Below are positions 8,407-44,092 of a stretch of DNA of 64,000 nucleotides, piece after piece. The stretch is from Acidobacteriota bacterium (GTDB lineage: Bacteria > Acidobacteriota > Terriglobia > Acidiferrales > UBA7541), in NCBI GenBank assembly GCA_003223245.1, contig QHYI01000105.1, positions 7,913 through 71,912 on the forward strand. The letters are read 5' to 3'. A program made the position numbers and the translations under genes. The notes beneath the pieces were generated by a model, which was not told where the DNA came from, did no database searches, and worked only from the letters and a program-made list of their open reading frames with translations. Within the stretch, counting starts at the first letter, position 1. The number at the start of each line of letters is the position of its first letter.

Positions 8407-10524
8407 TTACGGCTTGGCGTCGGAGGAAGTGGACTTCTGCGCCACGCGATGCTTGGATTGCGAAAGCTTCTTTTCGACTTCCGCAACCTTGTCGGATTCC
8501 AGGTCTGCCGGCAGTGACCTGTGCCATTCCGCCAGCGATTTTTCCCACTCCGCCGCGGCCAGGTCGGGCCGGCCGAGCTTGGCGTAAACATCGCCCAAGT
8601 GCGCGTGAATTGTGGGATCGTGGCTTTCGCGCGCCACGGCCTTGCGCAGCGTGGCTTCTGCGTCCACAGGCCGATTTTCCTTGAAATAAATCCATCCGAG
8701 GCTGTCGAGATAGCCGCCATTGTAAGGTTCTTCCTGCAGCGCGCGCTCAACCAGCGATTGCGCCTCGTTCAGACGGATTCCCAGGTCCCCAAGCATATAG
8801 CCGTAATAATTCAACACCGGCGCGTTCTTGGGATTTACCGCCAGAACTTTCTTGAATTCTTCCTCGGCCTTGTCATAAAGCTTCTGGCGCTCGTAGATGG
8901 CGCCGAGGAGGAACCAGATCATTTCGTTGTCACGAGGCTGGCCGGGAAGCGCTTCGGCGGCATGGGCCGATTCCTCGGCTTCCTTGTAATGCCGGCCGCG
9001 CTCATAAACTTGCGCAATGTTCAGATAGGTGTCGCGGTCGCTCGAATCTCCGTGCAGTTGCGCGCGCAGGAGCTTGACGGCTTCGTCGCTCTGCCCGTTT
9101 TCTCCAAGCAGCAGCGCATAGCTCGAGCGAATTCCAGAGTCTGCAGGGTACTTGGCCATCGCTTCCTTGCCGGTTTCGAGCGCTTTCGGCAAGTCCTTGG
9201 CCGTGCGGTACGTGTCCATGATCATCATGCGCGCGCGCCGATCTTCTTCGTCACCCAGGTGCCCTAGCTCTTCAAAAGTGTAAATCGCGGCCTGATAATT
9301 CTGATCCTCGCGGTAGAGCTGCCCCAGCTGCTGATACAAGATGGACAGCGATCTCTTGCGCGATGGCAGCGTGGCCGGCTGCCCTTTGATCCCGGTCACT
9401 GCGTCCGTCAGCACGCGAATGGCATCTTCATAACGGCCCTGCGATTCGTAGAGCATCCCTTCGTTGTACATGACCTCGAGGCTGCCCGGCGCGTATTGCC
9501 GAGCTTTTACCAAATTCTCTTCGGCTTTATCCAGTTGGTGCAGCTCGCGATAGATTTGCGCGATTCGCAAATACACATCGGAATCGTCGGGCGTCAGCTC
9601 CGACAATTTCTGGTAAACCTTCAGCGCTTCCGAATATTTTTCTTCGGACAACAAGGTTTGTCCCAGACCGCGTTGATGGCTCAGCTCGGAAGGATCCAGT
9701 TCGGCAGCTTTGCGGTAGGCCGTTTCCGCCTTCGGCAAATCATGTGCCTGCGTATATGCATCGCCGAGCAAATCCAGCAGCACCGGCGAGGACGAATGCT
9801 GGGTAATCCCTTCGAGCAGCGCCACGGCTTCGTCAGACTTACCCTCATCCATCAGCAACTGCGTCAATTGCTCGACCGCCTGCTCGTTGTCCGGATCGGT
9901 TTTCAGGATGCTCCGTAAAACCTGCTCGCTCTTGTCGTGTTCGTTTTTTAGCCGGTAGAGCCGCGCCAGCCAGAGCGCGGACTCTGTATCCGTGGGGTCC
10001 AGACGGTAGATTTCGCGGAATTGCTCAATGGCCTTGTTTGCCGTTTCCGACTGCCCGCTGCCAGCATTCACGTCCCCTAAGCTTCGCAAATAAATTCTTC
10101 CCAGCAGACGCCGCGTCGGCACGTCATTAGGGTCACGCCTCAGGATGTCTCTCGCTTCGTTTTCCGCTTCCTTGGTACGCTGTGCCTTCCAGTACATCTC
10201 CGCCAGCCGCTCGCCAATCACCGGCGATTTCGGGTCCAGCGCATAAGCCTTTTTGTAGGCCTCGATGGCTTTCGTGGCGTAGTCCGGGTTGCTCGAAGCT
10301 TCATATTGCTGTTCGTAAATGTGGCCCATCGTGTAGTTGTAATAGGCGTCCGCGCGCGGGGAATCTGTTTCGGAGTTTCCGGGCGCGGCTTCGGAAGAGG
10401 GACTCTGTGCGGCGGGAGTCTGAATCTTTTTCTCGGCGGGAGGATTTCCGGGCGTCTGCGCGAAGACGGGCGCACTGGCCAGGCCCAGGATGATGGCAAA
10501 CGAAACTATCCGTTGAATTTTCAT
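8407..10524 (-). CDS. Secreted tetratricopeptide-repeat (TPR) protein
   Basis: It starts at MKIQRIVSFAIILGLASAPVFAQTP (signal peptide, ATG at 10524). Many TPR-like A..Y..A....P units follow along about 700 aa. Confidence 0.8.
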   Translation of the reverse strand: MKIQRIVSFAIILGLASAPVFAQTPGNPPAEKKIQTPAAQSPSSEAAPGNSETDSPRADAYYNYTMGHIYEQQYEASSNPDYATKAIEAYKKAYALDPKSPVIGERLAEMYWKAQRTKEAENEARDILRRDPNDVPTRRLLGRIYLRSLGDVNAGSGQSETANKAIEQFREIYRLDPTDTESALWLARLYRLKNEHDKSEQVLRSILKTDPDNEQAVEQLTQLLMDEGKSDEAVALLEGITQHSSSPVLLDLLGDAYTQAHDLPKAETAYRKAAELDPSELSHQRGLGQTLLSEEKYSEALKVYQKLSELTPDDSDVYLRIAQIYRELHQLDKAEENLVKARQYAPGSLEVMYNEGMLYESQGRYEDAIRVLTDAVTGIKGQPATLPSRKRSLSILYQQLGQLYREDQNYQAAIYTFEELGHLGDEEDRRARMMIMDTYRTAKDLPKALETGKEAMAKYPADSGIRSSYALLLGENGQSDEAVKLLRAQLHGDSSDRDTYLNIAQVYERGRHYKEAEESAHAAEALPGQPRDNEMIWFLLGAIYERQKLYDKAEEEFKKVLAVNPKNAPVLNYYGYMLGDLGIRLNEAQSLVERALQEEPYNGGYLDSLGWIYFKENRPVDAEATLRKAVARESHDPTIHAHLGDVYAKLGRPDLAAAEWEKSLAEWHRSLPADLESDKVAEVEKKLSQSKHRVAQKSTSSDAKP

Positions 10525-10679
10525 GATTATTCCTGAACCCAAAAGTATCCCATGCGGCGGAAACGGGGTCAAAAGCCAAATGCGCTGGCGTTTCGAGAGC
10601 TTGCAGCGCTTTCCAAAGCGTGGGCACCCCCCGGAGCTAAGATGCCGAGGGTCGAAAAAACGTTGGGGAGAGAGCGGGG

Positions 10680-10708
10680 TTGACATTCTTTCTTATTTCT
10701 GCAATTAT
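10680..10708 (+). promoter_or_regulatory. Sigma70-type promoter of arsR-arsM. It predicts a leaderless or near-leaderless transcript.
   Basis: TTGACA (10680-10685), a 17-nt spacer, then AATTAT (10703-10708). The arsR ATG at 10715 is 7 nt downstream, and no Shine-Dalgarno sequence is visible. Confidence 0.5.
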
Positions 10709-10714
10709 CGAACT

Positions 10715-11071
10715 ATGTGCAAGCCCGATACTCTCCTGGTCACGCGCTGCGCCGACCGCTTTTCCGCGCTCGGCGCCGAACCGCGCCTGCAAATCCTCCG
10801 TCTTCTTCTCGCCGCCCACCCCGCAGGAATGGTGGCCGGCGAAGTCCAGGAAGAACTGGGCATCCCCGCTTCGACTCTTTCCCACCATCTCGAAAAGCTC
10901 AAGCAAGTCGGCCTCGTCAAAGCTCGCCGCGAAGGGACGTATCTCTGGTACTCCGTAGATACCGATGCTTTTCGCGAAGTGTTGAACTTTCTCTACGAAG
11001 AATGCTGCACGCGCTCCCGTGCTGTCCCGGCAGAATCCGTGGTCCCAATTTCAAAGGGAGGAACTCCATGA
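10715..11071 (+). CDS. arsR: ArsR/SmtB family metalloregulator
   Basis: MCKPDTLLVTRCADRFSALGAEPRLQILRLLLA...STLSHHLEKLKQVGLV, with a C-terminal ECC. Start refined to the ATG at 10715. Confidence 0.85.
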   Translation: MCKPDTLLVTRCADRFSALGAEPRLQILRLLLAAHPAGMVAGEVQEELGIPASTLSHHLEKLKQVGLVKARREGTYLWYSVDTDAFREVLNFLYEECCTRSRAVPAESVVPISKGGTP

Positions 11072-11919
11072 GCGAAACCAACATTCAAGAAGCGGTGAAG
11101 CAAAAATATGGGGAAGCCGCGAAGCGTGCTGCCAGGGGCACGACGGCCTGTTGCGGGGCAGGCGCGTCCATCAATGGTTGCGACCCAATCACCAAGCATC
11201 TCTACAGCGACGCCGAGAAGGACGCCTTGCCGGAAAAAGCCGTCGCAGCCTCGCTCGGCTGCGGCAATCCCACCGCTCTTGCCCAATTGCAACCCGGCGA
11301 AACCGTCCTCGATCTTGGCTCCGGCGGCGGCATTGACGTCCTTCTTTCCGCCAAGCGTGTTGGCCCCACCGGCAAAGCTTACGGCCTCGACATGACCGAC
11401 GAAATGCTGGCGCTGGCTCGCGAAAACCAGAAAAACGCCGGCGTCACAAACGTCGAATTTCTGAAAGGTGCGATCGAAAACGTCCCTTTGCCCGACAATT
11501 CCGTCGACGTTATCATCTCCAACTGCGTCATCAATCTTTCCGGCGACAAAGATCGCGTCCTTGCGGAGGCGTTTCGCGTCCTCAAGCCCGGCGGCCGCTT
11601 TGCGGTTTCCGACGTCGTCGTGCGCGGCGAAGTTCCCGCGAACATCCGCAAAAGCATGGAACTGTGGGTCGGCTGCGTCGCGGGCGCGCTGGAAGAAAAT
11701 GAGTATCGTGAAAAGCTTGCCCGCGCGGGGTTCGAATCCATCGAAGTAGAGGCCACGCGCGTTTACCGGCTGGAGGAGGCCGGCGAATATCTCCAAGCCG
11801 CCGGCCTTGATCCCGAAACCGTTGGCCCGCAGATCGACGGCAAGTTCATCAGCGCTTTTGTTCGGGCGGTAAAGCCCGCAGCTAAATCCATGTGCTGCGT
11901 CCCGGCTTGTTGCCCGTGA
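11068..11919 (+). CDS. arsM: Arsenite S-adenosylmethionine methyltransferase
   Basis: [18 protein letters not shown]...ACCG...[29 protein letters not shown]...ISNCVINLS. There are Cys pairs at both ends. An ATGA overlap joins it to the arsR stop. Confidence 0.85.
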
Positions 11920-11923
11920 TCTC

Positions 11924-12326
11924 GTGGTGGCGCAGCTTTATCCCGAGCGCAGCGAGGGAATGCTGCGCCCCATTTGGGCAAACCTCGAGTCCGTGTGCAG
12001 GAGACATTCTTTCTGTCCGCTGCTCGCTGGAGCGGGCATAATAACCCATGCGCCAAATCGGCATCGACGTCTCCGCTCACCGCTCCAAATCCGTTTCCGA
12101 ATTCGAGGGCCGGCGCTTCGACACGGTCATCACCGTGTGCGATTCCGCCGCGGAACTTTGCCCTACGTTTCCCGGAGCGCGGCGCCTCCACTGGAGCATC
12201 CGAGATCCCGGCAACGCCACCGGCTCGCACGAAGAACAACTCGCAGCCTTCTGCCGCGTCCGCGACGAACTCACCTTCCGCCTGCGGCAGTTTCTTGCGG
12301 CCCATTCCACAACAGAAAAGCCTTAG
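11924..12326 (+). pseudogene. arsC: Decayed LMW-PTP-type arsenate reductase: P-loop lost, internal frameshift/deletion
   Basis: Frame 0 from 12048 gives MRQIGIDVSAHRSKSV...TVITVCDSAAELCPTFPG...HWSIRDP, an ArsC C-terminal two-thirds. A TAA lies immediately upstream in that frame. Frame 2 from 11924 gives ...ERSEGMLRP...AGAGIITHAPN, which resembles a degraded CTGNSxRSQMAEG...SAGxExHGxNP segment without the catalytic Cys. Confidence 0.6.
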
Positions 12327-30545: not shown

Positions 30546-30737
30546 ATGCGATTCCGTACCGCACTGAGCCTCGTCTCCATCTTTGTTGTATGCTTTACTA
30601 TAGCTGCCTGGGCTACACCGTTTCCGGATCGGATCGTGCCACCCAGGTTGGCGCCAAATCCTGACCGCCCGCCCGAGTCGGGTAAAACCGCGAGCCAAAG
30701 AGGAAGAACCGATTCGCTCAAGCCAACACACACGTAA
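30546..30737 (+). CDS. Possible small secreted proline-rich peptide (63-aa precursor)
   Basis: The ATG is preceded by GGAG with an 8-nt spacing. The signal-like N-terminus is MRFRTALSLVSIFVVCFTIAAWA. The mature part is TPFPDRIVPPRLAPNPDRPPESGK... Confidence 0.35.
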   Translation: MRFRTALSLVSIFVVCFTIAAWATPFPDRIVPPRLAPNPDRPPESGKTASQRGRTDSLKPTHT

Positions 30738-30815
30738 TCCTTAGTTCACCAATCCTACGCGGCCGCACGCACCCAACCCCTCGCGGCATCTTCATTTTGG
30801 ATTAAGGAGTTTCAG

Positions 30816-33095
30816 ATGCGCGCGACTCTGAAAATCGTCCTGCCCCTGATCGTGAGCGTCGCCAGCGTGTCTCTTGTTTTCGCCGGTTACCAGGTAAGGA
30901 ACCAGCGGCGTATCTTGCGCAACGATCTCGCGCGGCGGGCGGAAATCCTGGCCGATAGCCTCCAGGAGAGCATCGAGCGGGAACTTGGCCGGGGCCAGGA
31001 CCGCGGCCTGCGCCGTTTCGTCGAGCGCTATGGGCAACGCGAGCACCTCCGAGGAATTGCTATCTACGATACAGGAGACCATTTGCTTGCCATTACTCCG
31101 GGACTTGAGCCAGCCTTGCCGCTGCACCCAACCGCCATAACCAAAGCCATGCACGACGATCATGGCGATGGCGAATTTCTTCCCCCTGAACAGACCTCGG
31201 CACAACAGGAAAGCGATGCCCTTCCCGTGCACGTTTATGCGATGCCGCTTCACCGGGACAACAAAGTCGTCGGAGCCCTCCTCCTGGTGCACGACACCGG
31301 CTACATTGAAATACAAGTCGCACACACCCTGCGTGACGCCCTTCTCAACGCTCTGGTGCAAACGCTGTTGATTAGCGCCCTGGCGCTGCTTCTTGTGCGC
31401 TGGACTTTTACCGGACCTCTCACGCGCACCGCCAAATGGGTCCGCACATTGCGCACCGGCCAACCCAATCCGCATCCGGCACTGTTGCAAGGCGGAGCCA
31501 TGGAGCAGTTGCACCATGAGGTTACCCACTTGGCCCGAGACTTACATTCGGCAAGGACGGCGGCCGAAGTCGAAGCGCGGCTCCGCGATTCCAACGCCTC
31601 GCTGTGGACCGCGGAACGGCTGAGCGTCAATCTTCGCGAACGGCTTCAAAACCAGCCGCTTTTTGTGGTTTCGAATCGTGAGCCCTACATGCACGTCTTC
31701 GACGGGAAGGACATCAAGGTGATCGTGCCCGCCAGCGGCGTGGTCACCGCCCTCGAGCCGGTTTTGCTGGCGTGCAACGGCACATGGGTCGCGAGTGGCT
31801 CCGGCAGCGCGGACCGCGAAGTCGTCGATTCCCAGGACCGGCTCCGCGTCCCTCCGGATCGTCCGAGTTATACGCTCCGTCGCATCTGGCTTACGGAAGA
31901 GGAAAACAAAGGCTATTACGATGGATTTTCGAATGAGGGCCTCTGGCCGCTTTGCCATATCGCCCATACGCGCCCAATTTTCCGCCCCGAAGACTGGCTG
32001 CAATACCAGCGGATCAACCAGCGGTTTGCCGACACCGTCTTGCAAGAAATGGCAGACGCGGATTCGCCCATTCTGCTGGCGCAGGACTATCATCTTGCAC
32101 TCGTTCCGCGCATGGTGAAGGATGTCCGCCCGGACGCGCGCGTGGCTATCTTCTGGCACATCCCCTGGCCCAACGCAGAGGTCTTCGGAATTTGCCCTTG
32201 GCAGCGCGAACTCATCGAAGGATTGCTGGGCGCGGATCTCATCGGCTTCCATATTCAAACCCATTGCAACAATTTCCTTGAAACCGTGGACCGCGGTCTC
32301 GAAGCGCTCACCGAATGGGACCGCTTTGCGGTAAGCCGCCAAGGCCACGTTACCCGAGTGCGGCCCTACCCGATTAGCGTGGAGTTTCATGAAAAACCCA
32401 GCCTGGAACCAAATATCGCCAACAGGCTGCGCGCGGAATTGTGCGACGAGATGGACATTGAAGCTACGCATCTGGGAGTCGGGGTGGATCGTGTCGATTA
32501 CACCAAAGGAATCCTGGAGCGGTTCCGCGCCTTGGAAAGGTTTTTCGAACTGAATCCGGGTTACTGCCGGCGGTTCACCTTCGTGCAGATCGGCGCGCCC
32601 AGCCGGACCGACATCGACCGCTACAGGAATTTGCTCGAGGAAGTCAATTCTGAGGCGGAGCGCATCAACGACCGCTTCCAAACGTCGCGGTGGAAGCCCA
32701 TCGTGTTTCGCGGGAAACACCATTCCCACGAGGAAATTTCCCGTTTCTACAAGGCGGCCTCCTTCTGCATGGTCACTTCCCTGCACGATGGGATGAACCT
32801 GGTGGCCAAGGAATTTGTGGCTTCCCGGGAAGATGAACGCGGCGTATTGATCCTGAGCACGTTTGCCGGTGCAGCGCACGAACTGAGTGATGCGCTGCTC
32901 GTGAATCCTTACGACATTTCGCAGGTCGCGCGAGCTATTCATCGCGCGCTGGAAATGCCAGAGAGAGAGCAGACCGAGCGAATGCAGCACATGCGCCACA
33001 TTGTGCGGCAACACAATGTATACCGCTGGGCCGCGCACCTTCTCTTCGATCTGACTGAGATTCGTATCGAACTGGTGGAGCGCGCAGAAGCCTAG
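30816..33095 (+). CDS. otsA: Trehalose-6-phosphate synthase (GT20) fused to an N-terminal two-TM sensor/HAMP-like module
   Basis: The GT20 part starts near residue 265 ([12 protein letters not shown]...[15 protein letters not shown]...[11 protein letters not shown]). The N-terminus has TM1 ([18 protein letters not shown]), a loop of about 150 aa, TM2 ([13 protein letters not shown]) and a HAMP-like linker. The RBS is AAGGAG. Confidence 0.85.
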
Positions 33096-33184: not shown

Positions 33185-33844
33185 TTGAACGCCGCCGAAA
33201 CACCGTTCGATTTCGTCACCGCTTCCTACCTCACCCGGATTGGAAATCACTCGGCGGAAAACCTCGCGGAATTGCTGACTGGGCTCGAACATTGCAACGA
33301 CGCCTCCATTTTTCACCACACCTTTCAAACGCTGGGCTTCCACCACTTCCTCACGGAAGGCTTTTCCAACGATTTCGCGCAGTGGACGCTGGCCTCCCTG
33401 AACCGAACTGACCTTGCCGAGCAACTGGCCAGCCTCGACATCCGTGATTACCTTTCGATTGCAGCGCTACGAAGCGATCTTCGCCGCGTAGTCCGGGATT
33501 TTTGCGACGCTCAGCCGCAATTCGCGTCGCAATCCGGCCTCGAGCGATTTCACTTCTGCGAGAGCGTGGAAGTGACCGTGCCTTTTGGCCGCTGTGCGCA
33601 CACCCTGGGTGAATTTCGCGAAGGCGTTGCGCATCTCAGCCACGCCAGTTTTTATTTTCACTTCATTTCCTCGCGGCTGCGCCTCCAACTCCAAACCAAT
33701 GACTTTTCCTATTGGCTCTCCGGCAGTCTAGGCCTTCGGACGCTCGCTGACAGCATCAATCGCATCGACGTCTACACGAACACGCTCGACAGCGCCCGCG
33801 CCAAGATGCTCCGCCTGATCGACCGCGAAAGGAGAAACCCATGA
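33185..33844 (+). CDS. Conserved hypothetical protein, possibly the DUF5752-type partner of TreT-like synthases (from memory only)
   Basis: 219 aa with a TTG start. Its stop overlaps the ATG of the next gene (ATGA). The composition is His/Phe-rich and cytosolic-looking. Confidence 0.55.
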   Translation: MNAAETPFDFVTASYLTRIGNHSAENLAELLTGLEHCNDASIFHHTFQTLGFHHFLTEGFSNDFAQWTLASLNRTDLAEQLASLDIRDYLSIAALRSDLRRVVRDFCDAQPQFASQSGLERFHFCESVEVTVPFGRCAHTLGEFREGVAHLSHASFYFHFISSRLRLQLQTNDFSYWLSGSLGLRTLADSINRIDVYTNTLDSARAKMLRLIDRERRNP

Positions 33845-35067
33845 CGGAAGTCTTGGCGCCAAGCCGGATTCCTCTGGAAAACTATGTCGGGGTCGTAGGC
33901 GCGGGCGAGATCGAGGAATTGCGCGCGCTGGCCAAGCCCCTGCGCGGCCGCAGCATGGAGATGATCAACTCCACGGCTGTGGGAGGCGGCGTTGCGGAAA
34001 TTCTCAACCGTCTGGTACCGCTGGCCGAAGAACTCGAGCTGGCCATGCGTTGGGACGTGATGAAAGGCGCGGAAGAATTTTTCGACGTCACGAAATCTTT
34101 CCACAATGCCTTGCACGGCGAGCCGTATCTCCACAAGTCCAAGGATTTTGAGATTTTTCTCTCCTACAACGAGCGGAATCGCGCCAACCTTCCGCTCGAT
34201 GCCGAATTCATGGTCATTCATGACCCACAGCCGGTCGCGCTGATTGACGCTCGGCCGCCCGGTTCCAATCACTGGGTTTGGCGGTGCCACATTGATTTGT
34301 CGCATCCGAACCGCGAGGTCTGGAACTTTTTGGAGAAATTCGTTTCCCGCTATGACGCGGCCATGTTCTCTTCTCCCGAATTTTCGCGCCAGCTCTCTAT
34401 CTCGCAATACCTTTTCTACCCCGCCATTGACCCGCTTTCCGAAAAGAACTGCCCTCTCGATCCGGAATTGATCGAGCAAGTTCTCGACCGCTATCAGATT
34501 GATCCGCAGCGGCCCATCCTGACGCAAATCTCCCGCTTCGACCGCTTGAAGGATCCCGTGGGCGTCATTCGCGCGTATCGCATCGTGAAGCGTTACTTCG
34601 ACTGCCAGTTGGTTCTCGCTGGCGGCAGCGCGTCCGACGATCCGGAAGGCGCTCTGGTTCTGAAGGATGTCCTGCGCGCGGCCGACAAAGACCCCGATAT
34701 CAAGATCCTCGAACTCCCTGCATGGGCCCCTTTGGAAGTGAACGCGCTGCAGCGCGCTTCGACGATTGTCGTGCAGAAAAGTTTGCGTGAAGGGTTCGGC
34801 CTGACTGTTTCAGAGGCGCTATGGAAAAAGAAGCCCGTCGTAGCTTCCGCCGTCGGCGGCATTCCCACGCAAATCATTCACAAGCACACCGGCTTGTTGG
34901 CGTACTCCGTCGAAGGCACTGCTTATCAAATCCGTTTTTTGCTTTCCCACCCGGAGATCGCCGCGAAGCTCGGAGAAAACGGCCACCAGCACGTAAAGGA
35001 AAACTTCCTCATCACGCAAAAACTGAAGCGCTACCTCGCTTTGTTCCTGCTCCTCGACCGGAGCTAA
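33841..35067 (+). CDS. treT: TreT-like trehalose (glycosyl-transferring) synthase, GT4 family
   Basis: 408 aa with INSTAVGGGVAEILNRLVPLAEELELAMRWDVMKG..EFFDVTKSFHNALHG and a C-terminal GT-B EGFGLTVSEALWK. Confidence 0.75.
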   Translation: MTEVLAPSRIPLENYVGVVGAGEIEELRALAKPLRGRSMEMINSTAVGGGVAEILNRLVPLAEELELAMRWDVMKGAEEFFDVTKSFHNALHGEPYLHKSKDFEIFLSYNERNRANLPLDAEFMVIHDPQPVALIDARPPGSNHWVWRCHIDLSHPNREVWNFLEKFVSRYDAAMFSSPEFSRQLSISQYLFYPAIDPLSEKNCPLDPELIEQVLDRYQIDPQRPILTQISRFDRLKDPVGVIRAYRIVKRYFDCQLVLAGGSASDDPEGALVLKDVLRAADKDPDIKILELPAWAPLEVNALQRASTIVVQKSLREGFGLTVSEALWKKKPVVASAVGGIPTQIIHKHTGLLAYSVEGTAYQIRFLLSHPEIAAKLGENGHQHVKENFLITQKLKRYLALFLLLDRS

Positions 35068-35934: not shown

Positions 35935-36170
35935 ACGCCTCGTAGTAGCGGGTCTTTAAGACCCCGTGCTGCTTGTTCTTCCGATATCCCTCAGGACTGC
36001 AACTGCTCCGAATTTCGCATTTCCATTTTCGATTCTCTATTTTCCGACTTCCAATTGCGACTTTCGATTCCCTGCTGCCAAAGCCAAGGGCGGAGGAAGT
36101 TGACGGGCGAGTTCACGCCGCAAGAAGAGAGAAAAGTAAGGAGAGATATGATAAAGTAAGGAAGCGCGGT

Positions 36171-36428
36171 ATGGCCATGAAGAAACAAGCCAAGTTGACC
36201 AGCAAGGGGCAGATTACCGTGCCGCGCGAGATTCGACGCCGGTTGGGCGTGCGGGCGGGAGATCGCCTGGAGTTTGAGGACAACGGCAAGGGAATAGAAG
36301 TCAAAGCGGTGAGAGAACAGAGTCCTTTTGCGAAGTACATGGGAATCGGCAATCCGGGAATTGGAAAGGGCCGGAAAGCGATCAACAAATGGCTGCGTGA
36401 GATCCGAGGTCATCAGGACGAAGAGTGA
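36171..36428 (+). CDS. vapB: AbrB/SpoVT-fold antitoxin (VapB-type)
   Basis: MAMKKQAKLTSKGQITVPREIRRRLGVRAGDRLEFE. The RBS is AAGGAAG. Start refined from the 151-aa ORF-track version. Confidence 0.8.
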   Translation: MAMKKQAKLTSKGQITVPREIRRRLGVRAGDRLEFEDNGKGIEVKAVREQSPFAKYMGIGNPGIGKGRKAINKWLREIRGHQDEE

Positions 36429-38875: not shown

Positions 38876-39230
38876 CCGGTCCTCTGACCCGCCGCGCGCT
38901 GTAGCCCGTCTTAGGCTTTAGGCCATGAGGATAACGGTCAAGGGGACATGTAAAATTTGTCCGTGCCCTACCGATGAACAGGATACTCCCCATATGGTTC
39001 TTCCTTTATCTCCTGTTTTTCCAGTAAGTTAGCAAAGAATGCGTCTTTGCCCCTGTACTTACCCTGTGGACAAAACCGTACGGTGGAACAGGCTCTAGTA
39101 CTTCTGCCCTATTCGTCTTTGTAACCGACTGACTATCTGTCGGAACAGCCTCGGCCGGCATCATTTCCTCGTTCGAACAATAGAACGTGTCGCTAGCAAC
39201 CGTCCCACGAAACATCACAAGGAGCCCGTG

Positions 39231-39794
39231 ATGACCCTTGTTCGTCGAGCGAACCGCCTAGCTAGCCAACATGGTTTCTCCATGGTGGAGTTGATAATTG
39301 CCCTGGGAGTCGTCGCAGTGGTGCTGGCAAGTTCCCTGCCCATGGTGTTCAGGTCGCAACGCGCCTACCGGCTCATGAACGACACCCGAGCCATCGCCGA
39401 CCAACTCACACTGGCGCGCGTGCGAGCCGCCAGCGAGTTCACCCAAACAAGACTTAATTTCAATTTGGCTAATGGCAGTTATCAGCTTCAGCTCTGGGAC
39501 AAGGCCACCAATAGCTTTGATATCACCGAAGGCGGGAGGCAGTACCTCTCCGGCTCTACCAATTTTAGCATTGGCACCGTTGGCACCCCTGCGGGCAGCC
39601 AAACCACTATCCAGGAAAGTCCCCAGATCATTTTCAACTCAAGAGGCATCGCCGTCGACAACACGGGAGCGGCTACCGGGAACTACGCTATCTATCTGTC
39701 CGATAACCAAAGCCAATACTCTGCGGTCAGTGTTTCGGCAGGCGGCAAGGTCAGCATCTGGCGGTGGAAAGGTTCGAGCTGGCAGGGCTATTAA
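39231..39794 (+). CDS. GspH/FimT-like minor (pseudo)pilin
   Basis: It has the prepilin N-terminal methylation motif QHGFSMVELIIALGVVAVV. The RBS is AAGGAG. Confidence 0.75.
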   Translation: MTLVRRANRLASQHGFSMVELIIALGVVAVVLASSLPMVFRSQRAYRLMNDTRAIADQLTLARVRAASEFTQTRLNFNLANGSYQLQLWDKATNSFDITEGGRQYLSGSTNFSIGTVGTPAGSQTTIQESPQIIFNSRGIAVDNTGAATGNYAIYLSDNQSQYSAVSVSAGGKVSIWRWKGSSWQGY

Positions 39795-39835
39795 ATCTCT
39801 TACCAAATCTTTTGGAAGCAACGAGGCGAACTTTC

Positions 39836-40384
39836 ATGTGCGATTGCGTTGGCGGCAAATCAAAGCGCGGGGCCAAAGCACAGGCGGGATTCTCGATCCT
39901 GGAAACGATGATCTCTGCGGTAATCCTGCTGGTCGGGGTTGTGCCCGTTATGGCGTTATTTGGAATCGCTGCGGGACAGAACAAAAAGCAAGGTGACATC
40001 GCTACCCGAACGATCGAGTACTCGCAGGACAAAATGGAGCAGTTGCTCTCCTTGGATTTCAACGATGGCTCGACCAATACCGCCATCTTCCCCGCTAGCG
40101 CGACGGGTGGTACGGGACTTGGCGGGGCCATGGCGGCGAGCAGCACGGTTGGGGGTAGCAATCCTGCCGCGCCCGTCGCCGGGTATGTGGACTATCTCGA
40201 CTCCAATGGAAACCTGTTGACCAGTCCGACCGGCGCTTTTTATACGCGCGTTTGGGGCATCTCCACGGATGCCACAGGAAACATCAAGACTGTTCAGGTA
40301 GTGACCGCCGCGGTCTCGTCCTTAGCGGCAGGCGGCCCTGCGCCAACGATGACCTTGGTCGGCGCCAAGGGCTTTGGTCACTAA
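39836..40384 (+). CDS. PilV-like minor pilin
   Basis: It has the prepilin motif AGFSILETMISAVILLVGV. Confidence 0.7.
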   Translation: MCDCVGGKSKRGAKAQAGFSILETMISAVILLVGVVPVMALFGIAAGQNKKQGDIATRTIEYSQDKMEQLLSLDFNDGSTNTAIFPASATGGTGLGGAMAASSTVGGSNPAAPVAGYVDYLDSNGNLLTSPTGAFYTRVWGISTDATGNIKTVQVVTAAVSSLAAGGPAPTMTLVGAKGFGH

Positions 40385-40402
40385 AAAGGAAGGGTGTTTG
40401 AG

Positions 40403-41281
40403 ATGACCAAGAGCAAGAGCCAAGGATTTTCACTCCTAGAGCTGATGGTTAGCATCGCGGTGCTGGTCACCATCTGTGGCGCGCTGTTTTCCGCCTTATT
40501 CGCTTATCAAAAGACCTACGCGTCGGAAATGCTGAAAGCCGATATGCGCCTGGGAGTGCAGGGCGCCGCAGAAACCTTGGCTCAGGAAATCGGCCAGGCT
40601 GGCGCCGTGCCGCCTACCACCACCACGCTTACGGGGAGCATCACGGCAAGCGCGCTGGCCCAAAGCGCTAGCGTAATCTCAACCGCAAATATGTTTGCTG
40701 GCGAAACCTTGCAAGTCGACCAGGGCCCCACTTATGAGACCGTCAAAATCGCCAGCGTATCCAGCTCCACAACCATCAGTGCCATCTTCAACAGCAATCA
40801 CGCCGCGGGAGCTCTGGTTTGGGCTAGCGGCGTCTTTCCCCAAGGCATCCTTAGTTCTTCGACGGCCAACGTGTTACAGCTTTTTGGAGATATCAACAGC
40901 GACGGAACCCTGGCCTACGAAGAGTATAGGTGCGACATGACAGCGGGAACGCTCACGCGGTCCATTACGCCTGTCGGAGCCGGCGAAAGGAATGCCGCCG
41001 TGGTGGTCCTTCAAGGAGTTATCGCAAATCCAGGCGGGACACCGTGCTTTACCTATGCCGCTCCTGTGTCTGCGGCAGGCTTCAACTTCATCACCAACGT
41101 GGGGTTCACCGTGACGACTCAAACCTCGGACCCCGACCCACAGACTGGCCAATATGCCACGATGACCAAATCTTTCTTGGATCTCGCGCCGCGGAACGTC
41201 AAGGCCGGCTTGGCTCTGGCGCAAGGCGGCTACACCGCCCCATTGCAGGCCACGCCTCCGGGCCTGCCCATGAGTCCATGA
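40403..41281 (+). CDS. PilW-like minor pilin
   Basis: It has the prepilin motif QGFSLLELMVSIAVLV. Confidence 0.7.
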   Translation: MTKSKSQGFSLLELMVSIAVLVTICGALFSALFAYQKTYASEMLKADMRLGVQGAAETLAQEIGQAGAVPPTTTTLTGSITASALAQSASVISTANMFAGETLQVDQGPTYETVKIASVSSSTTISAIFNSNHAAGALVWASGVFPQGILSSSTANVLQLFGDINSDGTLAYEEYRCDMTAGTLTRSITPVGAGERNAAVVVLQGVIANPGGTPCFTYAAPVSAAGFNFITNVGFTVTTQTSDPDPQTGQYATMTKSFLDLAPRNVKAGLALAQGGYTAPLQATPPGLPMSP

Positions 41282-42794: not shown

Positions 42795-43160
42795 ATGAGG
42801 ACAAGACGAGAATTGCAGGAAACCCCAGTCTATGTCGCCTCGGCATGGTGGAGAAATTGCGAACCGTTTGTAACCATCGTCGGCGGGAGCCAGAAAGCCG
42901 TGGAAACGACCATTCAGGCCGTGATGCTTCAAACGGCAACCGACGCCTATAACGAACAGGGGAGCAAAAAACGCGAGCGCGATGACTTCCTGCTGGACAT
43001 GGCTCGGTCGTTTGCCAAACGCGATACGCTTGGCAACGTCTTCCCTGCCCATGTTCTTGAGAACTATTGCAGCGAGAAGTTGCTGCGTCATCGCTACCTG
43101 GACTATCAAAACTTCCACTCTTTAGTGAACGGCGACCCAAACGCCATAGTCCGTTTCTGA
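42795..43160 (+). CDS. Hypothetical protein
   Basis: 121-aa ORF with GGAGGGG upstream. I recognised no family. Confidence 0.45.
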   Translation: MRTRRELQETPVYVASAWWRNCEPFVTIVGGSQKAVETTIQAVMLQTATDAYNEQGSKKRERDDFLLDMARSFAKRDTLGNVFPAHVLENYCSEKLLRHRYLDYQNFHSLVNGDPNAIVRF

Positions 43161-43168
43161 GCGCAGCT

Positions 43169-44092
43169 ATGTTCCATCCTTCAAATCCCCCGAAGCCGCA
43201 GGCGGAGATGTACGAAAAACAGTTCCGGCTCTACCTTCTCCGCTTGGACCTGATCAGCGCGGTGTCCTGGTGGCTAAGCGCTCTCGCCGCCGTTTTGATT
43301 CTGGTGGCTTTTCTCGCCTTGCTCTTTCCAGGGCTGCTTGTCTATCTCCTCCCGCGTGGTTGGGACTCCACTTCACCGCTCGCGATCCTTCTCACGGTAC
43401 TCTTGCTTTCCCAAGCCTTCACGCTCTATCAGGGACACCAGTTCAAACTCTTTCGGCATCGCCTCGCCGCTCAGATGGACGCCGCTGAGAAACAACGCAT
43501 GCGCGCGGATACTTTTTACGGCATGTCCATCATCGATCCCCTCACCGGCCTCCACAACCGCCGTTTCGGGGAAGAGCGCTTGAAGGATGAGGTTGCTCGA
43601 GCGGAAAGGAAGAACCAGAACTTGGCCGTGATCGCCATCGATCTCGACAACTTCAAGCCCATCAACGATCAATTCGGACACGCCGCCGGAGACTTGGTTT
43701 TGAAGGAGTTCGCGCGCCGCCTCCGACGGGCCATCCGCCCCTGTGATGTTCCCGTGCGCCTCGGCGGAGACGAGTTCCTGATCCTTCTTCCGGAATGCTC
43801 CACCGAGAATGTTGACATCATCTTCTCCCGCCTGCACCCCTTTGAGGTTACGGTGAACCGCCAAAAGGTGCCTGTTTGTTTTTCGCGGGGACGTGCCCAA
43901 TACCAGATCGGCGACAAGCCGGAAACACTGGTCGCGCGCGCCGACGAGCGCCTGTACGCCGATAAGCAGGCGCGGAAGAATCCACGTCCGTCCGAAGACG
44001 GCGCCTACGGACCGGAAGAACTGTCATCCGGCGTCATTCATGCAGAAACGCGGGACAGGTGTGCCGCGCTAAGCGGCAGTCTGGAGGATTAA
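43169..44092 (+). CDS. Membrane-anchored diguanylate cyclase (GGDEF)
   Basis: Two TM segments are followed by DPLTGLHNRR...IDLDNFKPINDQFGHAAGD...RLGGDEFLILL. Confidence 0.9.
   Translation: MFHPSNPPKPQAEMYEKQFRLYLLRLDLISAVSWWLSALAAVLILVAFLALLFPGLLVYLLPRGWDSTSPLAILLTVLLLSQAFTLYQGHQFKLFRHRLAAQMDAAEKQRMRADTFYGMSIIDPLTGLHNRRFGEERLKDEVARAERKNQNLAVIAIDLDNFKPINDQFGHAAGDLVLKEFARRLRRAIRPCDVPVRLGGDEFLILLPECSTENVDIIFSRLHPFEVTVNRQKVPVCFSRGRAQYQIGDKPETLVARADERLYADKQARKNPRPSEDGAYGPEELSSGVIHAETRDRCAALSGSLED

Follow-up and report, generated by a model that had tools for sequence, protein, structure and literature searches.

The input half of WalK (YycG/VicK), a sensor kinase of Firmicutes, consists of a first transmembrane helix (TM1), a single extracytoplasmic PAS/Cache-like domain of ~150 residues, a second transmembrane helix (TM2) and a HAMP domain, and small membrane-anchored proteins encoded nearby modulate the kinase. 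Here we describe a gene that joins a module of this kind to a trehalose-6-phosphate (T6P) synthase. It lies in a stretch of 64,000 nucleotides, hereafter the window, from contig QHYI01000105.1 (positions 7,913-71,912, forward strand; assembly GCA_003223245.1, Acidobacteriota bacterium, UBA7541), and coordinates below are window positions unless a locus is named. The receptor-type T6P synthase gene occupies 30816..33095 on the + strand and is a complete open reading frame (ORF) that starts with ATG and encodes 759 residues plus a stop. Unlike WalK, its product is without a cytoplasmic PAS domain, a DHp (HisKA) domain, a HATPase domain and a response regulator, and its output is a GT20 glycosyltransferase domain; identity to WalK is just 16-18% and the lineage is Acidobacteriota. 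A small gene upstream parallels the encoded modulators of WalK.

Other receptor-enzymes are coupled through HAMP domains, including class III adenylyl cyclases (Rv3645), HAMP-GGDEF diguanylate cyclases and HAMP-PP2C phosphatases. These proteins are dimeric and, like the window protein, carry sensor, TM2, HAMP or HAMP-like segment, helical linker and catalytic domain in one polypeptide. Their outputs produce or erase signalling molecules or phosphoryl marks, whereas the output here is a primary metabolic enzyme of the GT-B fold. In glycosyltransferases of the BcsA type, activity is gated by a PilZ receptor domain within the same polypeptide; there, however, the input is cytoplasmic cyclic di-GMP, the fold is GT2, the product is a polymer, and there is no extracytoplasmic sensor or HAMP domain. 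Soluble OtsA/Tps1 enzymes (E. coli, PDB 1uqu; M. thermoresistibile, 5jij) share the catalytic fold and the catalytic residues of the window protein. They are cytoplasmic and begin at the VVSNR strand, whereas the window protein has 281 extra N-terminal residues with two transmembrane helices.

In Thermoproteus tenax, an operon partner exerts post-translational control over T6P synthase activity (TPSP-GT; PMC3634074). The T. tenax system (msc-gt-tpsp; orfY-treT) is comparable in its protein-level control of trehalose and its link to a mechanosensitive channel (PMC3634074), and an orfY homologue and treT are present at the locus described here. It differs in that activation proceeds through a complex with a soluble GT4 protein, the synthase is fused to a T6P phosphatase, and no membrane sensor, Cache or HAMP domain is involved. 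In a 2016 census, Cache domains occurred with none but established signalling outputs, SMP_2 excepted, although the models of that census were built from proteins chosen for such outputs (PMC4822843). In the literature that we searched, we found no description of a membrane-bound or HAMP- or Cache-linked T6P synthase; an initial annotation of this DNA had likewise known of no characterised example.

Architecture and conservation of the fused protein

The initial annotation had read the protein as the input module of a sensor kinase in which the kinase is replaced by OtsA, and this architecture is well supported by our analysis. The GT20/OtsA-type catalytic domain spans residues 282-747 (31659..33056, +) and was recognised by Pfam, NCBIfam, PDB sequence matches and Foldseek. 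Pfam PF00982 aligns residues 283-747 with model positions 4-472 of 473 (E = 1.4e-116), and solved OtsA/Tps1 structures match by sequence with E-values from 7e-75 (PDB 5jij) to 1e-63. Foldseek comparison of the full-length model with OtsA structures gave TM-scores of 0.86-0.90 (0.89 to 5jio). The domain had earlier been placed from around residue 265; the motif quoted for it is found at residues 282-293 (nucleotides 31659-31694), an offset of 17. The non-catalytic N-terminal part comprises 281 residues (nucleotides 30816-31658) and so reaches 48 nucleotides beyond the end at 31610 that had been assigned to it.

Scores against functional models stayed under the equivalog cutoffs. The NCBIfam OtsA model TIGR02400 gave 429.7 bits, under its equivalog cutoff of 564.85, with OtsA still the best-scoring function (430 bits versus 310 bits for GgpS), and PRK14501 (TPSP) gave 492 bits versus a cutoff of 634 that was not reached. 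In a pairwise alignment with E. coli OtsA, 11 of the 13 substrate and catalytic positions were kept (R9, G22, Y76, W85, D130, H154, R262, K267, R300, D361 and E369, whose roles we take to be those in the OtsA structures). The two changes are G21 to Ser307 (31734-31736) and F339, the donor-base contact, to His636 (32721-32723). Given these changes, the preferred nucleoside-diphosphate-glucose donor may be one other than UDP (uridine diphosphate)-glucose. Judged by its sequence, the domain is a bona fide OtsA-like GT20 with intact catalytic residues. Pfam and NCBIfam scans of the window protein found no match to HisKA (DHp) or HATPase_c; the C-terminal 478 residues are GT20 and the resemblance to kinases is confined to the input half. 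Because it is predicted to be without a DHp or ATPase domain, the protein is not a histidine kinase.

Hydropathy analysis (Kyte-Doolittle, 19-residue windows) bore out both hydrophobic helices of the initial annotation, the one at residues ~5-25 and the one that follows the outside segment. TM1 (residues 5-25; 30828..30890, +), an N-in anchor, reaches 2.30 over residues 5-23, and TM2 (residues 175-198; 31338..31409, +) reaches 2.32 over residues 176-194; the sole further window above 1.4 falls within the GT20 fold. We obtained AlphaFold2 monomer models of residues 1-295 (predicted local distance difference test score, pLDDT, 75.7) and of the full-length protein (pLDDT 84.3). In both, TM1 lies within one unbroken helix from residue 2 to 58/59, and helix 162-214 continues unbroken through TM2 into the following segment. 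TM1 also aligns with the first transmembrane helix of WalK in the NCBIfam model HK_WalK; that the region is a signal peptide, cleaved between VFA and G, instead of an anchor is formally conceivable.

The entire region between TM1 and TM2 is filled by a single extracytoplasmic sensor domain of the PDC/Cache type (residues 26-172; 30891..31331, +), recognised by profile, by Foldseek and by Pfam matches in homologues. In the model of residues 1-295, the front part has helices 2-59, 62-72 and 106-114 plus five strands; the rear part has helix 162-214, a low-confidence loop of 12-13 residues (~215-226) and helices 227/228-258 and 266-277. The ~150-residue segment that had been predicted to lie outside the membrane is thus modelled as helix, five strands and helix. 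The linker and charged helical stretch that had been described after TM2 are recovered as helix, connector, helix 227/228-258 and helix 266-277.

Three independent lines indicate that the N-terminal module is the input half of a sensor kinase of the WalK type. NCBIfam models of full-length sensor kinases align in register: HK_WalK positions 11-258 with residues 5-255 (E = 8.7e-5), CreC positions 139-251 with residues 131-244 (E = 6.5e-5) and AtoS positions 165-271 with residues 142-251 (E = 3.7e-3). A profile of 22 family members matches the extracellular domain of S. aureus WalK (5is1, 4ywz and 7dud; E from 3.5e-4 to 5e-3). Structurally, the top PDB match of the 295-residue model is 9a5d_A, an integrative model of full-length WalK (E = 2.6e-10, TM-score 0.72, 271 columns), and the WalK extracellular crystal structures 4ywz and 5is1 give TM-scores of 0.75-0.77. 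These matches are followed by the Cache/PDC sensors of KinD, Mlp24, PctC, Tlp3, DctB and DcuS. Pfam Cache-clan models found no match in the window protein itself; among the 22 homologues, they matched as sCache_3_2 in 9 (best E = 1e-3), dCache_1 in 6 (3e-5) and dCache_3 in 3 (1e-4). No kinase with a paralogous sensor emerged when the N-terminal profile was run by hmmsearch over the window ORFs and most fetched loci (E. coli reference loci excluded). One distant relative, P0124 (L088 1968-4709, 913 residues), has a duplicated extracytoplasmic module, with two Cache-like units ahead of TM2, HAMP and GT20.

We found the fusion to be widespread among Acidobacteriota. With residues 1-279 as the query, 186 proteins were retrieved, and many of them include the GT20 start; those that are named come from metagenome-assembled genomes (MAGs) of Acidobacteriota. 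When a single genome was scanned for each species, relatives of the N-terminal module turned up in 367 species genomes, and the best 80 of these, nearly all Acidobacteriota MAGs (gp2, Candidatus Acidoferrum/Acidiferrales), served for the locus comparisons reported here. The N-terminal match runs directly and in frame into the GT20 match in 80/80 loci, and a codon-level check found an uninterrupted ORF of 757-773 residues in all 15 loci to which it was applied. In these loci, residues 1-280 have a ratio of nonsynonymous to synonymous divergence (dN/dS) of 0.08-0.16, compared with 0.04-0.09 for GT20, and synonymous divergence is near or beyond saturation. The N-terminal module is therefore under purifying selection; its 280 residues are also conserved in hundreds of homologues, and the arrangement cannot be put down to chance. 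The start codon is preceded by a Shine-Dalgarno sequence, AAGGAG, 8 nucleotides 5' of ATG1, and the nearest upstream in-frame stop is at 30735.

A full-length search returned one metagenome protein that is 100% identical and more than 120 homologue clusters of 759-774 residues; remoter members (36-57% identical) include one protein from a Methylomirabilota MAG. The input module was found on no other output among the best 150 of 1569 matches (E <= 1e-3), all of which were the same GT20 family or fragments. Public names, where given, are just "trehalose-6-phosphate synthase", and this annotation conceals the sensor half of the protein. Some database entries carry precomputed Pfam matches to dCache_1 and Glyco_transf_20. 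As far as we have seen, the architecture is latent in databases, yet undescribed in the literature searched.

The HAMP-like transmitter and the helical linker

In a canonical HAMP domain, a Pro opens the first helix (AS1), a Gly ends it and a Glu opens the second helix (AS2). Immediately C-terminal to TM2, the window protein has a segment of helix, connector and helix that we describe as a divergent, HAMP-like transmitter (residues 199-247; 31410..31556, +), with AS1 at 201-215, the connector at 216-227 and AS2 at 228-247. An alignment of 30 diverse members has P201 and E235 in every sequence and G215 at a conservation of 90% or more, and hhalign places these positions on the corresponding positions of HAMP domains taken from seven E. 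coli K-12 proteins (Tsr, Tar, Tap, EnvZ, CpxA, NarX and PhoQ). With TM2 included, the alignment reached a probability of 89% and a score of 33.8, against a maximum of 21.3 in 60 column-shuffled controls. Without the TM2 columns the score was 18.4, where 100 shuffles gave a mean of 8.0, a standard deviation of 2.0 and a maximum of 16.7. Identity among 11 diverse members is 0.44 in AS1, 0.15 in the connector and 0.45 in AS2, a distribution typical of HAMP domains. Together, signature and alignment give weak support to HAMP membership, and "HAMP-like, divergent" is the description that we adopt.

Between AS2 and beta-strand 1 of GT20 lies a conserved helical linker (residues 248-281; 31557..31658, +) whose consensus includes AAExEARLRxxxxxxWTxERL. 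No other part of the N-terminal module is so well conserved (0.49 identity in the 11 diverse members), and the invariant residues of the linker include A250, E253, R257, W264, T265, R268 and L269. The spacing from E235 to S286 is 51 in 225/233 sequences and that from W264 to S286 is 22 in 234/234, whereas the connector, upstream of the linker, differs in length by up to 5 residues among sequences. A constant linker combined with a variable connector is the pattern that we would expect of a helically coupled linker. Modelled within the isolated module, the linker has a pLDDT of 47-65; modelled within the full-length protein, it reaches 75-82, an increase which suggests that it packs on GT20.

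A proposed receptor-enzyme and its alternatives

We propose that the protein is a transmembrane receptor-enzyme in which the WalK-like PDC/Cache domain, flanked on either side by a membrane helix, would take up a signal. A conformational signal would pass through TM2 to the divergent HAMP-like helix-connector-helix and onward, by way of the rigid linker of fixed length, to beta-strand 1 of the active OtsA-type GT20 domain, which would make T6P in the cytoplasm. The protein is probably dimeric, like HAMP receptors, and the signal would shift the placement or the opening and closing of the paired GT20 domains, thereby setting, at the protein level, how fast T6P is made. The signal could be a small ligand, the state of the envelope or of water stress, or the small membrane or secreted protein encoded alongside. 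The gene would act together with orfY-treT in the same transcription unit and with a T6P phosphatase encoded elsewhere (otsB being the next gene in some relatives). Our data establish the order of the domains, their conservation under selection, intact catalytic residues and a setting among trehalose genes; that the protein dimerises, that it is gated allosterically, in which direction it is regulated and what it senses are inferred, and it is reasonable to suppose that an extracytoplasmic signal gates compatible-solute synthesis. On balance, we lean slightly towards T6P synthase activity being regulated by a signal that arises outside the cell or in the membrane. The broader claim, which we put forward tentatively and at a little under even chances, is that these proteins are the first recognised family of HAMP-coupled receptor-glycosyltransferases, in which a Cache receptor, maybe tuned by a small protein, would control a T6P synthase without phosphorelay, second messenger or transcription.

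To our knowledge, the switching of compatible-solute synthesis on a scale of seconds is only partly understood, and the known cases are ion effects on soluble enzymes, or transcription. If the proposal is true, a receptor wired straight to a T6P synthase would constitute a new control logic and could provide soil Acidobacteria with a seconds-scale trehalose switch in drying and rewetting. Hundreds of uncultured soil Acidobacteriota species carry the family, which may therefore be relevant to the survival of this dominant soil phylum through such cycles. Sugar-phosphate formation would also offer a simple in vitro read-out for HAMP signalling. The receptor-enzyme would further add a new output class to the Cache/HAMP toolkit, whose catalogued outputs are nearly all kinases, chemoreceptors, cyclases and phosphatases (PMC4822843).

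Several results weigh against this proposal. Without the TM2 columns, the hhalign probability of the HAMP-like segment drops to 25%. Pfam HAMP (PF00672) found no match in the window protein (E <= 1), and in 22 members (E <= 10) it was not among the 25 listed of the 29 family matches. The connector is 7 residues longer than those of the E. coli HAMPs. The "HAMP-like" label of the initial annotation is pitched at the right strength, given the conserved P/G/E positions and the hhalign scores above shuffles on one side and the Pfam result and the connector length on the other. A profile of TM2, HAMP segment and linker matched PDB sequences at noise level only (Aer E = 0.72, Tsr E = 4.3, among histones and SOX2); the Aer and Tsr matches are nonetheless in register with the HAMP segment. 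As monomers, the AlphaFold2 models are of a kind in which a four-helix bundle cannot appear. In the sensor domain, no ligand-binding residues were identifiable, and Y84 and D160 are the only polar sensor residues conserved across diverse members. The window contains no otsB (E > 1). The literature searched holds no HAMP-controlled glycosyltransferase and so offers no mechanistic precedent for N-terminal gating of a GT-B fold.

The same observations can be read as membrane tethering only, with the module anchoring a constitutive OtsA at the inner membrane, be it near a channel or an exporter, near TreT/OrfY or near a glycolipid pathway, and the outside domain acting as a scaffold or a surface for interaction instead of receiving a signal. 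This would fit the solid topology and membrane helices, the want of a definable ligand pocket and the weak HAMP membership, as well as the MscS gene near the L045 locus and the known complex of a trehalose synthase with partner proteins in T. tenax (PMC3634074). One helix would suffice as an anchor, however, and a conserved 150-residue Cache fold and helices with a HAMP signature would then be superfluous; the entire module is under purifying selection. Because the linker is helical, invariant in length and the best conserved part of the module, mechanical coupling is favoured over a mere, flexible tether, and we consider tethering alone rather unlikely. A variant of the receptor-enzyme proposal takes the upstream small protein, or the membrane itself, as the input in place of a free extracytoplasmic ligand. 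The small proteins share a conserved hydrophobic N-terminus in 50/80 loci, including forms of 41-73 residues that keep just that segment; WalK, the closest structural relative, has been modelled with its membrane partner YycH (9a5d); and the arrangement would resemble the action of MgrB or SafA on PhoQ, of MzrA on EnvZ and of YycH/YycI on WalK. Against this, ~30/80 loci are without a match to the small gene, the window copy has lost the C-terminal domain, and a terminator-like hairpin separates the two genes. We regard this variant as unlikely.

Two further readings concern the gene product itself. GT20 could make another product, such as glucosylglycerol-phosphate or another sugar-phosphate, or could be a regulatory pseudo-enzyme, as the sub-cutoff NCBIfam scores for OtsA (430 vs 565 bits) and TPSP (492 vs 634 bits), the changes F339 to His and G21 to Ser, and the lack of otsB in the window might indicate. 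The OtsA models nevertheless score far above GgpS, the acceptor-phosphate and catalytic residues are all kept, and relatives have otsB directly 3' (six loci) or treT/orfY (~45 loci), which makes such a change of function improbable. The last reading is an artefact of annotation or assembly, in which the true start would be internal, near GT20, and the upstream 840 nucleotides untranslated or a separate gene. In-frame GTG284 and ATG292 are present, and the public annotation mentions the synthase alone. A product that starts at M292 would be without the essential Arg288, because M292 lies 3' of that residue, and ATG1 has its own AAGGAG. The initial annotation had named an internal start with an untranslated upstream region as what would speak against its reading. 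We rejected this explanation, since stop-free, in-frame fusions occur in 80/80 loci from independent assemblies and the N-terminal dN/dS is 0.08-0.16; it is hardly credible.

Neighbouring genes and the upstream leader

The 5' neighbours of the fused gene, yceD, plsX and fabD, are on the opposite strand, so the fused gene opens its own + strand unit. The first gene downstream, 90 nucleotides away, is an orfY homologue (33185..33844, +; Pfam DUF5752, E = 6.6e-54) whose product matches T. tenax OrfY (PDB 4cso, "OrfY protein, transcription factor"; E = 2.3e-27); a literature search for DUF5752 found no paper. It is followed by a gene for a TreT-type trehalose synthase of family GT4 (33841..35067, +), which matches Pfam TreT_GT1 (E = 4e-52) and Glycos_transf_1 and scores 398 bits, under the cutoff, against NCBIfam TreT_Thcocales. 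The treT gene overlaps the orfY stop by 4 nucleotides, and the two are translationally coupled. We found the orfY-treT pair downstream of the fused gene in ~45/80 loci.

As the window contains no otsB, the T6P phosphatase for the window gene must be encoded elsewhere; Pfam likewise found no otsB among the 19 ORFs that flank the gene here and in L020 and L045. In 6/80 loci, an OtsB homologue is encoded directly 3' of the fused gene (E from 1e-11 to 1e-19), at 5067-5801 in L033 and at ~8340-9060 in L055, L066, L069, L072 and L080. The gene order in L033 and L072 is fused otsA, otsB, orfY, treT. With otsB adjacent in these six loci, the family is linked to the making of trehalose.

Upstream of the fused gene we found a small ORF of 63 residues (30546..30737, +) with an N-terminus resembling a signal peptide or transmembrane helix. 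Homologues lie ~100-120 nucleotides upstream of the fused gene in the 50 loci mentioned above (e.g. L001 5533-5883 and L045 5750-5887). In length, 33 of the small proteins have 113-118 residues and 14, among them the window copy, have 41-73. The long forms have a beta-rich C-terminal domain without a convincing family match; the window protein is a short form without this domain. All forms keep the motif MRFRxxLSLxTxFxxCFTxAxW(A/S)xP. Small membrane proteins that tune sensor kinases include MgrB, SafA, MzrA and YycH/I, and by analogy it is a plausible hypothesis that the upstream small protein is an accessory partner or ligand of the receptor.

The two genes are separated by a conserved leader or spacer (30738..30815, +) that contains a terminator-like element, in which a G+C hairpin precedes a T-run and L014 shows one compensatory change, and a block TCCTTAGTTC. 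Leader blocks are invariant among close loci despite saturated synonymous sites. The block TCCTTAGTTC is complementary to the Shine-Dalgarno region GGATTAAGGAG, and the minimum-energy fold of the leader pairs UCCUUAGU with AUUAAGGA. This fold, which would sequester the Shine-Dalgarno sequence, is no more stable than shuffled sequences (energy z-score -0.5). In the 0.8 kb upstream of the fused gene, neither Rfam nor a tRNA scan gave a match, and a promoter and terminator scan was at or below shuffle expectation.

Among the relatives, L045 carries a gene for an MscS-type mechanosensitive channel (10324-12249, -) ~2 kb downstream of the fused gene, which recalls the msc-gt-tpsp operon of T. tenax. 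In the contig of a distant family member, P0132 (L087 13088-17224, -), the receptor-OtsA gene adjoins genes for poly-HAMP proteins, several response regulators and kinase fragments, and is preceded by a gene for a GerE-type response regulator. Further downstream in the window, we observed an ORF with a MazE-type antitoxin domain (35973-36428, +), type IV pilin-like (N_methyl) genes at 39228-41281 and a GGDEF diguanylate cyclase gene (43067-44092, +), all of which appear unrelated to the receptor-OtsA gene.

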